Below are positions 4,034-12,214 of a stretch of DNA of 64,000 bases, piece after piece. Source of the DNA: Parcubacteria group bacterium (lineage in GTDB: Bacteria > Patescibacteriota > Minisyncoccia > Moranbacterales > UBA2206); the NCBI GenBank assembly GCA_041659505.1, contig JBAZYF010000001.1, forward strand, positions 35,654 through 99,653, written 5' to 3'. The notes below the pieces were generated by a model, which searched no databases, was not told the origin of the DNA, and was given only the letters and a program-made list of their open reading frames with translations. The first letter of the stretch is position 1, and each line of letters begins with the position of its first letter. A program made the translations under genes and the position numbers.

Positions 4034-4663
4034 TTAGGAAGTAACAAAATGTTCCGCGTATTTATATGGATTGAAAATATAAGTATTTTCTTCCACTATT
4101 CCGCTTATAAGCTTTGCTCCGTGAAAAAAACTAAACACTCTGTCACTTTTTAACTGCAAGTGGGGAAATCCCGCCATAACCAATAGAGCGTTTAATCTTT
4201 TTTGCAGATCGGTACAAAAACGTATATGCGCAATATAGGCCATATGCACAACCTCTTGGATAGTATGCTTATGTTTCTTCGCCATCCCACAAGGAAAGTG
4301 AGTCGCAAGACAAAGCGTTTTTGTTTCCTTAGCTTCAAACAAGTTGGCAATGCTATAGAGAGCACTGTCCTCATGAAACTGCTCAAATCCACCAAAAAGT
4401 CCCGGGCAAAAATTGAGAGGTCCTCCCGGAGGTCCAGCTCCATGAATCCGCTCATTAAACTTCCTCAGATAGTCCAGAAGCTCAATATCCCCATCGGGAC
4501 AGTGATTCCAGACTCCACCATTGTTGGTAAAACCCAGCAATTCTTCTATGGAAAAAGCTTGTAGAACTTGAAACGCTTTCAACTGTTGAGTGTAAGCGTT
4601 ATCCTCCTCGGACATATAACTTTTCTTCTTAGTCAAGCTTGTCATAGCACTCCTTCTTCCCAA
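4034..4663 (-). CDS. Hypothetical Cys-containing protein, last gene of the Hyf-like operon
   Basis: 209 aa, soluble. Five Cys, two in CP dipeptides (NHCPDG, NFCPG, LCLATHFPCG, RFCTD). Lies downstream of the HycE-like gene on the same strand. No family recognised. Confidence 0.35.
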   Translation of the reverse strand: MGRRSAMTSLTKKKSYMSEEDNAYTQQLKAFQVLQAFSIEELLGFTNNGGVWNHCPDGDIELLDYLRKFNERIHGAGPPGGPLNFCPGLFGGFEQFHEDSALYSIANLFEAKETKTLCLATHFPCGMAKKHKHTIQEVVHMAYIAHIRFCTDLQKRLNALLVMAGFPHLQLKSDRVFSFFHGAKLISGIVEENTYIFNPYKYAEHFVTS

Positions 4664-4771
4664 TCATTAAAAGAACCAAAAGCCCGCCCATTGCAGGCTC
4701 CTCGAAGAACAACTAACCTTTATATACCTAAAATATGAAATAGTCAAGACTAAAAAAATCTCCATCACTTC

Positions 4772-6346
4772 CTAAAGATCATTTCCTGAATAGGACAGAT
4801 TGAAACTCTTGTTGATGAGAGGAAAATCCGGCACAATATTGCCTTTTCCGGCGTGACCTACGACCGTCCAGTTAATAAAAGATGGATCGCGCACATCCAC
4901 GCGCGTAATTTGACCATCTGAGTCCGTCACGACAAAATAGACAATCTCGCCCCTCCAGCCTTCACTGATCCCGAGGGCAAAACTGTTTTTTCGCAAAATC
5001 GCCGTTTTGGGATTTACCAGCTCCCCTGGCGCTTCGGCCAATTTTTCCAAAGCTTGTTTTAGAATTTCAAATGAAACGAAAACTTCCTTTATCCGCACAT
5101 GAAGCCGTGCAAAAACATCGCCCTCTTTTTCCAGCGCAATGCCAAAATTCAATTCCGGATAAGCGGCATGGGGATATTCGATCCTGGCATCATGGGCAAT
5201 GCCCAGTGCTCTGCCGGCTACGCCGACAACTCCATGATCAAGCGCTAATTGGCGATCGAGCCGACCAGTACTTTGCAAACGGTTGAGGAGCGTACTACTG
5301 TCATCGGAAATCTCAATCACTTCCGCAAAATCTTTTTTTATTTTCAAAAGTTTTTCTTGTAATTGTTTTCCCGCTTCCGCAGAAATATCTTTCGTTACCC
5401 CGCCAATCACATTCACTCCGCGCAAAAATCGACTGCCGGTCAAACTTTCATTCAGTTGCATGATCATTTCGCGCAGACGACCACCATTGCTTCCGCCAAA
5501 ACTGAATCCGGTATCGAGCATAATAAACCCGATGTCATTAAAATGATTTGCCAGCCGTTCCAATTCAGAAAAAATCACTCGCAGATATTTTGCTCGCGCG
5601 GAGACTTTAGTTTCGGCCAGATTTTCAATCGCCTGGCAAAAAGCCAAACTGTGCGTGAAAGAAGTGTCTCCGGAAACTCTTTCTGACAGGCGCACTTTTT
5701 CCGCCAAGGGCAATGTTTCAAAAAGTTTTTCAATTCCCTTATGCTTATAGCCCAGTTTCGGCTCCAAAAGAACCACTTCCTCTCCCACCACGCTAAAACG
5801 AAAATGTCCCGGTTCGATAATTCCGGCATGCACCGGACCGACGGGAATTTCATAGATTCCCTCCCCCTTTACTTTCAAAAATTCATAAGTTCCAGTCGCT
5901 TGGGCAGGACGTTCTTGCCAATTAAAATCTTTCCGTAAAGGAAAAACTCCCGCCGGCCAATTTTCATGCAAAAGCATCCCTCGCGCATTAGGATGGCCGA
6001 GTGGTTCAAGACCAAAAAAACTTTTTATCCGCCGTTCATAGCCGGACGCTTCATGAATTGCTTTGGTGATCGAAGGAAAGCCTTTGCCGTCTTGGATGGT
6101 AATGTAGGGCGTCAAAAAAACATTTTCCCCTGGCACGCCAAAAACATAGAAGATGCGAAAACCGATTCCCGCTTTTCTCTCATCCGTCGCCGTGATAGTT
6201 TTCAGTTGCAACTTGTGGTCAAAATACAACTCATTACAAACAGTCAAAAGTTCCGCGGTCGGGACAGCATAAGTCAAAACATTGCCATCCTGCTTGACGG
6301 AAAAACTTTTGGGAATATATTTTTCTTGGATTTCGCTTTGATTCAT
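4772..6346 (-). CDS. HycE/HyfG-like large subunit of a group-4 [NiFe]-hydrogenase (NuoC-NuoD fusion) lacking all four Ni-Fe ligand cysteines
   Basis: Aligns by eye to E. coli HycE: the NuoC-like N-terminal domain, the GPVHAGIIEPGHFRF motif, and RVSGDTSFTHS in place of RVCGICGFAHS. The C-terminus FNLSYSGNDL replaces LDPCYSCTDR. Confidence 0.8.
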   Translation of the reverse strand: MNQSEIQEKYIPKSFSVKQDGNVLTYAVPTAELLTVCNELYFDHKLQLKTITATDERKAGIGFRIFYVFGVPGENVFLTPYITIQDGKGFPSITKAIHEASGYERRIKSFFGLEPLGHPNARGMLLHENWPAGVFPLRKDFNWQERPAQATGTYEFLKVKGEGIYEIPVGPVHAGIIEPGHFRFSVVGEEVVLLEPKLGYKHKGIEKLFETLPLAEKVRLSERVSGDTSFTHSLAFCQAIENLAETKVSARAKYLRVIFSELERLANHFNDIGFIMLDTGFSFGGSNGGRLREMIMQLNESLTGSRFLRGVNVIGGVTKDISAEAGKQLQEKLLKIKKDFAEVIEISDDSSTLLNRLQSTGRLDRQLALDHGVVGVAGRALGIAHDARIEYPHAAYPELNFGIALEKEGDVFARLHVRIKEVFVSFEILKQALEKLAEAPGELVNPKTAILRKNSFALGISEGWRGEIVYFVVTDSDGQITRVDVRDPSFINWTVVGHAGKGNIVPDFPLINKSFNLSYSGNDL

Positions 6347-11630: not shown

Positions 11631-11683
11631 GTTAATTGACTTTTTTCTGATTATGACTTAGACGTTTGTCAAATGTCTAAGTT

Positions 11684-12214
11684 CTACTTTTTATTAGCTT
11701 CCATTATTTCCAAAATCTTAAATAGATGACAAATTATCGTTTTGGGACTTGGCGGATCGCCGGGAATTTGAAAATCGACTGGAATCACCTTGTCTACTCC
11801 ATCCAAGACCGCATAGGAACCCTTGAAAATTCCTCCGGAAATCGCGTCATCCCCCACCGCCACAACTATTTTTGGATCAGGCGTGGCCTCATATGTTTTC
11901 ACCAGCGCTTCTCGCATATTACGCGACACTGCTCCCGTTACCATCAGCATATCAGCGTGCCGAGGAGAGGCCACAAAGTGAATTCCAAATCTTTCTACAT
12001 CATAGTAGCAATTACTCAGCGCGGTAAGTTCCTGCTCGCAAGCGTTAGTTGATCCGGCGTCCACCTCGCGAATCGCCAGCGAACCGCCAAATATTTTCTT
12101 GATCTTTTTTTCCAATCTTTTTCCCACAATTTCCAACTCTTCATTGCAACCCAAAGCTTCGGTGGAATGCACCGTTTTGGGAGTAGCAAAAATTTTAGAA
12201 TAAAACTTGATCAT
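11684..12214 (-). CDS. HycG/HyfI/NuoB-like hydrogenase small subunit lacking three of the four [4Fe-4S] ligand cysteines
   Basis: Aligns to HycG: VDAGSTNACE in place of VDCGGCNGCE, GDDAISGG in place of GACGNSGG, and IPGDPP in place of IPGCPP. The SPRHADMLMVTGAVSRNMR and PDPKIVVAVG framework is conserved. Confidence 0.75.
   Translation of the reverse strand: MIKFYSKIFATPKTVHSTEALGCNEELEIVGKRLEKKIKKIFGGSLAIREVDAGSTNACEQELTALSNCYYDVERFGIHFVASPRHADMLMVTGAVSRNMREALVKTYEATPDPKIVVAVGDDAISGGIFKGSYAVLDGVDKVIPVDFQIPGDPPSPKTIICHLFKILEIMEANKK

Follow-up and report, generated by a model that had tools for sequence, protein, structure and literature searches.

A predicted Ehr complex depleted of redox-cofactor ligands, encoded beside the ATP synthase operon and a β-carbonic-anhydrase-fold gene in a Parcubacteria bacterium

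Ehr complexes are defined by their kinship to group-4 hydrogenases together with the loss of the Ni/Fe-coordinating residues, and their function is unknown (PMC6349859; bioRxiv 10.1101/765248; PMC10284858). Subunit names come from Geobacter sulfurreducens, including EhrA (NuoL-like), EhrC (HyfE-like), EhrL, and EhrS (PMC7894505), and large subunits from Candidate Phyla Radiation (CPR) bacteria have been placed in a monophyletic clade within Ehr that lacks the metal-binding cysteines (Jaffe et al. 2020; PMC7304191), so that the bare observation of a cysteine-less CPR Ehr is not new. That paper makes no mention of ATP synthase or antiporter subunits, and we found no paper tying CPR Ehr to ATP synthase or carbonic anhydrase. 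Here, we describe the ehr operon in a 64-kb stretch of contig JBAZYF010000001.1 (the window; assembly GCA_041659505.1, positions 35,654 to 99,653), from a CPR/Patescibacteria bacterium that is Parcubacteria/Moranbacteria-like. The glycyl-tRNA synthetase encoded in the window is identical to that of a metagenome-assembled genome labeled "Parcubacteria group bacterium" and is next most closely related to those of Moranbacteria. The predicted complex belongs to an Ehr clade that has lost most of its iron-sulfur (FeS) ligands in addition to the NiFe cysteines, with the substituted positions invariant, and its operon recurs beside the F1Fo ATP synthase operon and has genes for β-carbonic anhydrase (β-CA)-fold proteins as its preferred neighbors.

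The six ehr genes are intact and full length, occupy 4772-12214 on the minus strand, and are transcribed in the order ehrS-A-B-C-D-L. They comprise ehrS (11684-12214; NuoB/HycG-like small subunit, 176 aa, PF01058), ehrA (9582-11630; HyfB/NuoL-like antiporter-like subunit, 682 aa, matching NF005086 at 698 bits, above the cut-off), ehrB (8649-9575; HycD/NuoH-like subunit, 308 aa, by Pfam), ehrC (7985-8644; HyfE-like, NuoK-related membrane subunit, 219 aa, matching NF008556 over its full length but below the cut-off, with a weak PF00420 match in a homolog), ehrD (6535-7980; HyfF/NuoM-N-like antiporter-like subunit, 481 aa, by Pfam/NCBIfam), and ehrL (4772-6346; NuoC-NuoD/HycE-like large subunit, 524 aa, PF00346 and PF00329). 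The EhrA-D, L, S naming scheme fits all six, which are predicted to encode a complete Ehr complex, a relative of complex I and the group-4 hydrogenases. An earlier reading of the window (the sequence-only reading) had described seven co-directional open reading frames (ORFs) here, the six ehr genes and a 209-aa ORF, as an Ehr-like module; the ORFs lie where it had put them, all on the minus strand, and the subunit set, the missing NiFe cysteines, and the absent NuoI-type ferredoxin all fit Ehr.

These features are shared with the Geobacter Ehr (GSU0739-45), which has the same six-subunit set, a large subunit without NiFe cysteines, and no NuoI-like subunit. The window operon differs in having the small-subunit gene first rather than last, in its EhrS ligand positions, which read T-C-D-D versus CCCC in a sister clade with Geobacter-like gene order, and in its clade's recurrent linkage with both the atp operon and β-CA-fold genes. 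Among solved structures, the best matches are to Escherichia coli formate hydrogenlyase (FHL; 7z0s), which with hydrogenase-4 represents the Hyc/Hyf systems of group 4a (large subunit, E = 1e-74; small, 7e-32; HycD-like, 6e-52), and the NuoC-NuoD fusion and the HyfB/E/F-type membrane subunits are likewise held in common. In contrast to Hyc/Hyf, the window complex has lost every NiFe ligand and keeps a single FeS ligand of the four, its large subunit stops after the L2 motif site, the loop between transmembrane helices (TM) 5 and 6 of its HycD-like subunit is remodeled, with His for Glu, and no genes for HycB/HycF/HyfA/HyfH ferredoxins, FdhF, Hyp proteins, or HycI occur in the window. The gene order of E. 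coli hyf, which the sequence-only reading had seen in this operon, belongs instead to the FeS-keeping sister clade.

The loss of ligands was followed residue by residue in alignments to the solved E. coli FHL structure. EhrL aligns to HycE (7z0s_E) over residues 24-523 (E = 1.3e-74), with RVCGICGF replaced by RVSGDTSF and DPCYSCTD by NLSYSGND, so that all four NiFe cysteines give way to S225, T228, S518, and G521, and D227, Y519, and D523 are invariant around them. During hydrogenase maturation, a C-terminal peptide is removed from HycE; since EhrL ends one residue past the L2 site, it has no such peptide to be cleaved. In EhrS, DCGGCNGCE has become DAGSTNACE, GACGNSGG has become GDDAISGG, and GCPP has become GDPP, and three of the four [4Fe-4S] cysteines are gone, the four positions now being T56, C59 (kept), D123, and D153. 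The claim that every metal ligand had been substituted was thus right for the large subunit, and exact in the motif changes it quoted, and fails for C59 of the small subunit. In comparison with respiratory complex I (Nuo), the complex lacks both the quinone-site Tyr and the ligands of cluster N2: RMDYLHSF of Nqo4 aligns to RVSGDTSF of EhrL, placing Gly at the position of the quinone-site Tyr (which we take to be Y87 of Thermus thermophilus Nqo4), and the N2 ligands of NuoB are lost from EhrS. With Gly in place of the NuoD quinone Tyr, EhrL would be no quinone reductase of a known kind.

Partners that could deliver electrons were sought across the window. No CxxCxxCxxxC ferredoxin motif was present in any ORF of at least 50 aa, and Pfam scans of the larger ORFs (those of at least 110-130 aa, with MetRS and ORFs overlapping a longer ORF left out) detected no hyp, formate dehydrogenase, NuoI, or quinone genes, returning only housekeeping, glycosyltransferase, NUDIX, and type IV pilus genes. 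The absence of a ferredoxin subunit, of formate dehydrogenase, and of hyp genes from the locus, noted in the sequence-only reading, therefore extends over the whole 64 kb. By residues and gene content, then, no electron route is predicted to exist in this Ehr clade.

To place the complex among its relatives, we mapped all window proteins onto 80 genomic loci retrieved via the large subunit and 11 true relatives retrieved via the small subunit (loci are cited below by L number). More than 8,000 large-subunit homologs were retrieved from the database, with identities of 54-77% across phyla; the top 120, at 63-77% identity, include sequences named for several CPR phyla as well as for Lentisphaerae and Thermodesulfobacteriota. 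Two clades can be distinguished. Clade A (at least 54% identical to the window EhrL) includes CPR members as well as Lentisphaerae/Victivallales, Firestonebacteria, and Scalindua, and has the window's gene order, S-A-B-C-D-L. Clade B (39-48% identical) includes Betaproteobacteria, Nitrospira, Planctomycetota, and Omnitrophota, and has the order A-B-C-D-L-S, which, like hyf, ends with the small subunit. The EhrL tree was built by neighbor joining only, and labels of metagenome-assembled genomes (MAGs) may be wrong; the tree contains no Geobacter sequence, and the window EhrL is 39-48% identical to the clade that includes Nitrospira sequences (L031, L034). Nitrospira sequences of this kind have been termed Ehr (PMC10284858).

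Alignment of the L1 and L2 motifs, a check proposed in the sequence-only reading, showed that the replaced sites in EhrL are invariant in all 88 sequences of both clades, as S225-G-D227-[S/T]228 and S518-Y-[S/T/A]-G521-x-D523. The small subunits divide the clades: all four FeS cysteines are present in 46 of 46 clade B sequences versus [T/D/S]56, C59, D123, and [D/N]153 in clade A (n = 35), which argues that full cofactor-ligand loss is a derived trait of clade A. The CCCC pattern was counted in 47 sequences. Locus L094, where the small-subunit gene comes first and the small subunit is yet of the CCCC type, may be an intermediate between the two. The invariance of the replaced sites indicates strong selection at the positions of the former active site.

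The membrane arm, as the sequence-only reading had it, appears intact, with its canonical Glu and Lys residues invariant. In the HyfB-like EhrA, E147 (TM5), K229 (TM7), K260 (TM8), and K358 (TM12) are found in 74 of 74 sequences (with one alignment gap at E147), and the HyfF-like EhrD has invariant E134, K221, and K339, with Asn252 standing at TM8 in place of the canonical Lys, a substitution found in most members of both Ehr clades. EhrC has invariant K70 and E161. The TM5-6 loop of EhrB carries the invariant residues E189, R192, D196, H201, E203, H208, E209, and E214, its two His occupying sites where HycD carries Glu. Intact proton-channel residues, taken together with invariant residues at the replaced ligand positions, suggest a complex that has been remodeled and works, rather than one that has decayed.

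What we regard as the main functional clue lies just downstream of the operon. The 209-aa ORF downstream of ehrL (4034-4663, minus strand), termed p209, probably starts at 4645 or 4615, the public gene call being 193 aa, and it was assigned to no Pfam or NCBIfam family. A word-indexed homolog search returned only p209 itself, and searching PDB sequences with a profile gave nothing significant; an exhaustive HMMER search recovered 25 remote homologs (23-42% identity), overturning the view of p209 as an orphan gene. In an alignment of 23 members, C, D, G, H, P, and C are invariant within the motifs CxDGD, FGGPL, and HxPCG, corresponding in the 209-aa numbering to C55, D57, H122, P124, and C125 (CPDGD ... 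HFPCG), of which C55, H122, and C125 form a zinc-type Cys...His-x-x-Cys motif of predicted ligands. No relevant Pfam family, including that of DabA (PF10070), was matched by any of the 23. An AlphaFold2 model built with this alignment reached a mean predicted local distance difference test (pLDDT) score of 93 (a single-sequence run, at 39, was unusable), and the top Foldseek matches to the model were β-CAs. On this structural prediction, p209 is a divergent β-CA-fold protein with a zinc-type motif, and not, as the sequence-only reading had assumed, a generic Cys protein belonging to a hydrogenase module. Neither can it be counted as a seventh conserved subunit of the operon, since it is absent from that position in most relatives. 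A terminator-like hairpin (4678-4702) stands between ehrL and the p209 gene, and a promoter-like TTGACT-17-TATAAA, read by eye, precedes it at about 4746-4718, so that the hairpin would fall in the 5' leader of the p209 mRNA, where attenuation would be a possible role for it. A strong terminator-like hairpin (3969-3995; 10 pairs, 7 of them GC) closes the unit.

Genes of this general kind recur beside ehr operons. All 12 profile matches to β-CA-like genes in L001-L094 lie at most 266 bp from an end of the ehr operon, and none was found elsewhere in the flanks; PF20393 or p209-type genes occur within this distance in the window and in L002, L010, L012, L014, L026, L082, L083, L084, L085, L090, and L094. 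The β-CA-fold gene is thus a preferred neighbor of the ehr operon. More than one family is involved. The gene that follows ehrL in L085 and L010 encodes a tandem protein of about 305 aa in which the PF20393 "putative carbonic anhydrase" domain occurs twice; CxDxR and HxxCG are found in its C-terminal half, while its N-terminal half is degenerate, and relatives of this tandem protein are encoded just after ehrL in L002, L026, L082, L083, and L090. In L012 and L084, a p209-family gene precedes the ehr operon, and in L014 and L094, one follows it. A pair of homologous proteins of about 550 aa, encoded next to ehrL in L008 (11727-13367) and L025 (11552-13243) and 24% identical (E = 8e-17), share a CxDGR...SHxxCAA motif, match no Pfam family, and, for the L008 protein, match no PDB sequence; they may constitute a third β-CA-like family. 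BLASTP between p209 and the PF20393-type neighbors was not significant; hhalign gave E = 0.058 with the single p209 sequence and E = 0.0056 (probability 6.5%) with the p209 family, all three motifs then aligning, a result that is suggestive only.

The second recurrent neighbor is the F1Fo ATP synthase operon, which in the window occupies 12501-20831 on the minus strand in the order atpB-E-F-H-A-G-D-C by Pfam and ORF calls (atpB, 19971-20831; atpE, 19671-19883; atpF, 19041-19529; atpH, 18440-18841; atpA, 16074-17612; atpG, 15109-16068; atpD, 12947-14359; atpC, 12501-12941). The ehr operon follows atpC across a 286-bp spacer (12215-12500) and is therefore downstream (3') of it in the direction of transcription, and not upstream of atpC-atpD as the sequence-only reading had stated. 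The spacer holds a promoter-like TTGACA-17-TATGCT at 12488-12460, and no terminator-like hairpin was found in it on the minus strand, so that read-through from atp and independent initiation are both possible. Besides the window, atpC lies directly upstream of ehrS in L001, L008, L021, L026, L085, and L086, and in L018 (Magasanikbacteria), an IS200-like (Y1_Tnp) transposase gene (3702-4157) has inserted between the two, accounting for a gap of 2.7 kb. With at least 1.2 kb of upstream sequence required and L094 included, atp-ehrS adjacency amounts to 8 of 28 clade-A-type loci, the atp-adjacent ones occupying at least five separate places in the EhrL tree; it is missing from all four clade A members outside the CPR. 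The tie to F1Fo proposed in the sequence-only reading is accordingly recurrent without being universal. The c subunit encoded in the window reads ...AFAEAVAIY..., with the Glu followed by Ala and Val, and lacks the Gln/Ser/Thr Na+ motif (for which our assumed reference is Ilyobacter tartaricus); the ATP synthase is probably H+-coupled, and Na+ coupling was rejected on these grounds.

In loci lacking Ehr, p209-family genes can likewise stand downstream of atpC, usually behind another carbonic-anhydrase-like gene. The order atpC, PF20393, p209-like is found in L165 and L167; in L170, a gene for a 259-aa CSDGR...SHEGCG protein separates atpC from the p209-like gene; and in L166, atpC is followed by a small CBS-domain protein gene (1128-1628), an anion transporter gene, and a p209-like gene. 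In L172, a p209-like gene overlaps a CsoSCA_cat gene. Each pair therefore has loci of its own: atp and Ehr without a detected carbonic-anhydrase-like gene (L008, L021), Ehr with such a gene but without atp (L010, L082, L090, L012, L094), and atp with such a gene but without Ehr (L165, L167, L170), from which it follows that the three pairwise links occur independently of one another.

Several further genes were seen around ehr operons. Small CBS-domain protein genes follow ehrL in two Magasanikbacteria loci (L018, 11769-12239; L021, 11780-12316), and in a Scalindua MAG (L029, 1673-3625), a co-directional gene some 360 bp ahead of ehrS encodes an anion transporter of the SulP family, which includes bicarbonate transporters. 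NUDIX genes occur near ehr in L082, L090, and L093, and four are present in the window (21370-21906; 31151-33216), three of them consecutive (31151-31612, 32079-32552, and 32611-33216). In a Lentisphaerae locus (L006, 1-12322), the clade A ehr operon directly follows genes for a second, more distant complex with HycD-, HyfF-, and large-subunit-like components (33-36% identity), and the gene immediately after the operon encodes a fusion of a 2x[4Fe-4S] ferredoxin with NuoB. In clade B, where neighbor clustering was swamped by spurious ORFs at high GC, the sole yield was an acylphosphatase-like ORF (VQGVGFR...GWVRN) recurring about 0.8 kb downstream of ehrS in some 18-20 Betaproteobacteria loci (for example, L046, 1684-2445).

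The window also contains long palindromic intergenic elements at 6347-6534 (188 nt) and 12226-12378, which have the termini GGACTTACGYGTT...AACRCGTAAGTCC in common. The first is inserted between ehrD and ehrL, genes that abut in relatives, and has a predicted RNA fold of -71.5 kcal/mol (z = -7.35); the second lies within the atpC-ehrS spacer, with its arms at 12226-12258 and 12346-12378. Matches to the shared-terminus motif also occur near 1084 and 55959; the motif is present five times versus 0.22 expected, and the elements look like miniature inverted-repeat transposable elements (MITEs) or repetitive extragenic palindromic (REP) sequences. Long spacers break the atp operon at 14360-15108 (atpG-atpD) and 17613-18439 (atpH-atpA); they share repeats (72 nt in three copies and 61 nt in two copies at 92% identity), both carry an identical promoter-like TTGACTTTTT(A/G)GTTGATTTGGAGTATAAT, and the atpG-atpD gap is present also in L085 and L021. 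An Rfam scan of the window returned tRNAs only. A type IV pilus cluster typical of CPR episymbionts (PilM, PilN, PilX-like, N-methyl pilins, and PilC/T2SSF) is located at 56424-63972.

Complex-I-like or antiporter-like machinery has been linked to CO2 chemistry in two described systems. In DAB, the β-CA-fold DabA is coupled to the NuoL-like DabB and requires proton-motive force (bioRxiv 10.1101/476713; 10.64898/2026.05.01.722082; 10.64898/2026.03.13.711513), and cyanobacteria possess NDH-1MS, a complex I whose antiporter-like subunits drive the hydration of CO2 (PMC6981117). Like DAB (DabAB) and MpsAB, the loci described here encode a β-CA-fold, predicted cytoplasmic protein with a Cys/Asp/His/Cys site beside a proton-conducting subunit of the NuoL/Mrp type, with no redox input; they differ in that p209 and its PF20393-like counterparts, at 120-310 aa, are small, match no PF10070, and have no membrane helix, and in that the putative membrane partner would be an entire complex-I-like assembly of six subunits that includes a peripheral arm. 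NDH-1MS and NDH-1MS' (CupA/CupB) offer the precedent of a complex-I-type machine with antiporter-like subunits coupled to CO2 hydration; there, however, the machine is redox driven, from ferredoxin to plastoquinone with FeS clusters present, and CupA is not a β-CA-fold protein of the p209 family. The Mrp Na+/H+ antiporter is redox independent, as this Ehr would be, and likewise combines NuoL/M/N-like with NuoK-like subunits (in the ehr operon, two PF00361 subunits and the NuoK-like HyfE), but it lacks a NuoB/C/D/H-like module, just as Ehr lacks MrpE/F/G.

We tentatively favor, while holding it well short of established, a reading in which the complex is a redox-independent, proton-gradient-coupled machine with a β-CA-like partner, working in the manner of DAB or NDH-1MS. 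Unable to run on electron transfer, it would couple proton flow through the membrane arm to a nonredox event. The site of this event would be the remodeled polar and acidic pocket in the peripheral arm, an attached partner of the β-CA-like kind, or both. The likeliest chemistry would be an interconversion of CO2 and HCO3- kept off equilibrium, that is, a vectorial carbonic anhydrase, and the proton-motive force might be supplied by the adjacent F1Fo hydrolyzing fermentative ATP in a CPR cell that has no respiratory chain. More speculatively, the acidic pocket (D227 and D523 of EhrL; D123 and D153 of EhrS) could act as a charge switch replacing the redox center of complex I. The proposal in the sequence-only reading of a redox-independent, ion-translocating or gradient-handling module stands as a reasonable one, and the best available. 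A bolder version, which we consider rather unlikely, makes F1Fo, the cofactor-free Ehr, and the β-CA-fold proteins together a redox-free chemiosmotic CO2/bicarbonate engine running in either direction, with the remodeled Asp/Ser pocket as the charge switch of a complex-I-type pump. In one direction, ATP-derived proton-motive force would drive vectorial CO2 hydration, the complex-I-like scaffold serving as a carbonic-anhydrase motor; in the other, hydration of metabolic CO2 or a bicarbonate disequilibrium would expel protons and feed the ATP synthase, which, if true, would represent a way of conserving energy that has not been described before.

A number of observations weigh against assigning the complex a β-CA-like partner. 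Of the 22 loci whose flanks reach 700 bp or more on each side, 8 (about 36%) had such a neighbor, a count that, like the other adjacency counts, hinges on contig ends and on the reach of the profiles used, and none was detected in clade A outside the CPR (Lentisphaerae, Firestonebacteria, Scalindua) or in clade B with its FeS cysteines, so that the partner is not demonstrably universal. Genes of the p209 family follow atpC also without Ehr, and ATP synthase could thus be their primary partner. In p209 itself, the C-x-D-x-R dyad is incomplete, the Asp being invariant and the Arg site being mostly Asp, otherwise Lys, Leu, Thr, or His, and never Arg; Pfam gives no match even at E = 10, the similarity to PF20393 at the sequence level is weak, and no membrane anchor is predicted. 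The p209 gene is moreover parted from ehrL by the promoter-like site and the terminator-like hairpin, and a physiological need for energized CO2 hydration in a fermentative CPR cell is not evident.

Two alternatives retain a pump and change what it does. The complex could be an Mrp-like secondary antiporter in which a proton gradient made by the ATPase moves Na+ or K+ or sets the cytoplasmic pH, with the peripheral arm as a plug or regulator and the β-CA-like neighbors supplying or buffering H+ and HCO3-. Its two Mrp/NuoL-type subunits with intact channel residues and its NuoK-like HyfE would suit this role, as would the exclusion of redox input, the linkage to atp expected of a consumer of proton-motive force, and the anion and other transporters and CBS proteins in some neighborhoods. 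Yet the operon contains no MrpE/F/G-type or further small membrane subunits, the adjacent ATP synthase c subunit lacks the Na+ motif, a mere plug would need no invariant residues at the former NiFe (88 sequences) and FeS (35 sequences) positions, and the placement of β-CA-fold genes specifically at operon ends is left unexplained; we regard such an antiporter as possible but doubtful. The classical hypothesis for Ehr, a redox-driven ion pump in which electrons would run from a docked soluble oxidoreductase, such as formate dehydrogenase, to some acceptor, has been proposed for Margulisbacteria and Saganbacteria (PMC6349859), and Geobacter Ehr is more abundant on formate (PMC7894505). Retention of all four FeS cysteines in the sister clade accords with it, but in the window clade three of these four ligands are lost, the NuoD quinone Tyr is Gly in EhrL, and the 64 kb hold no NuoI/HycF-type subunit, ferredoxin motif, or formate dehydrogenase. 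To our knowledge, CPR bacteria generally lack quinones and electron-transport chains. For this clade, a redox-driven pump seems to us very improbable.

It might also be that the neighborhoods have no functional meaning, with Ehr, ATP synthase, and the β-CA-like genes acting independently and their adjacency being synteny inherited within compact CPR genomes. Adjacency does occur in a minority of loci (8/28 for atp and 8/22 for carbonic-anhydrase-like genes), many of the loci come from related lineages, and there are distinct promoter-like and terminator-like signals. Inherited synteny does not, however, readily produce three pairwise links that occur independently, carbonic-anhydrase-like genes from at least three families that consistently sit at the operon edge, whichever the side and whichever the strand, or atp-adjacent loci scattered over the EhrL tree, with one adjacency interrupted only by an IS200 insertion, and we judge this reading unlikely. 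That the operon is the decaying, nonfunctional remnant of a hydrogenase, as the lost catalytic metal ligands might suggest, is effectively refuted by the pattern of conservation: six ORFs remain intact and full length, large-subunit identity stays at 54-77% across phyla with more than 8,000 homologs retrieved, and both the substituted positions and the channel residues are invariant.

As far as we could find, what is new here is the clade-specific loss of FeS ligands with the substituted positions held invariant, the repeated joining of the ehr operon to the ATP synthase operon, and the occurrence of β-CA-fold genes, p209 included, as habitual ehr neighbors. Ehr is widespread, and its function has been unknown since it was named; set against its relatives, the locus separates an FeS-holding Ehr from one that is fully cofactor-free, and the three independent neighborhood links turn an unknown function into a testable one, namely proton-motive-force-coupled CO2/HCO3- chemistry as in DAB. 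If this reading is true, a complex-I-type coupling machine could run without any redox chemistry, which would bear on how CPR bacteria without respiratory chains make use of a membrane potential.

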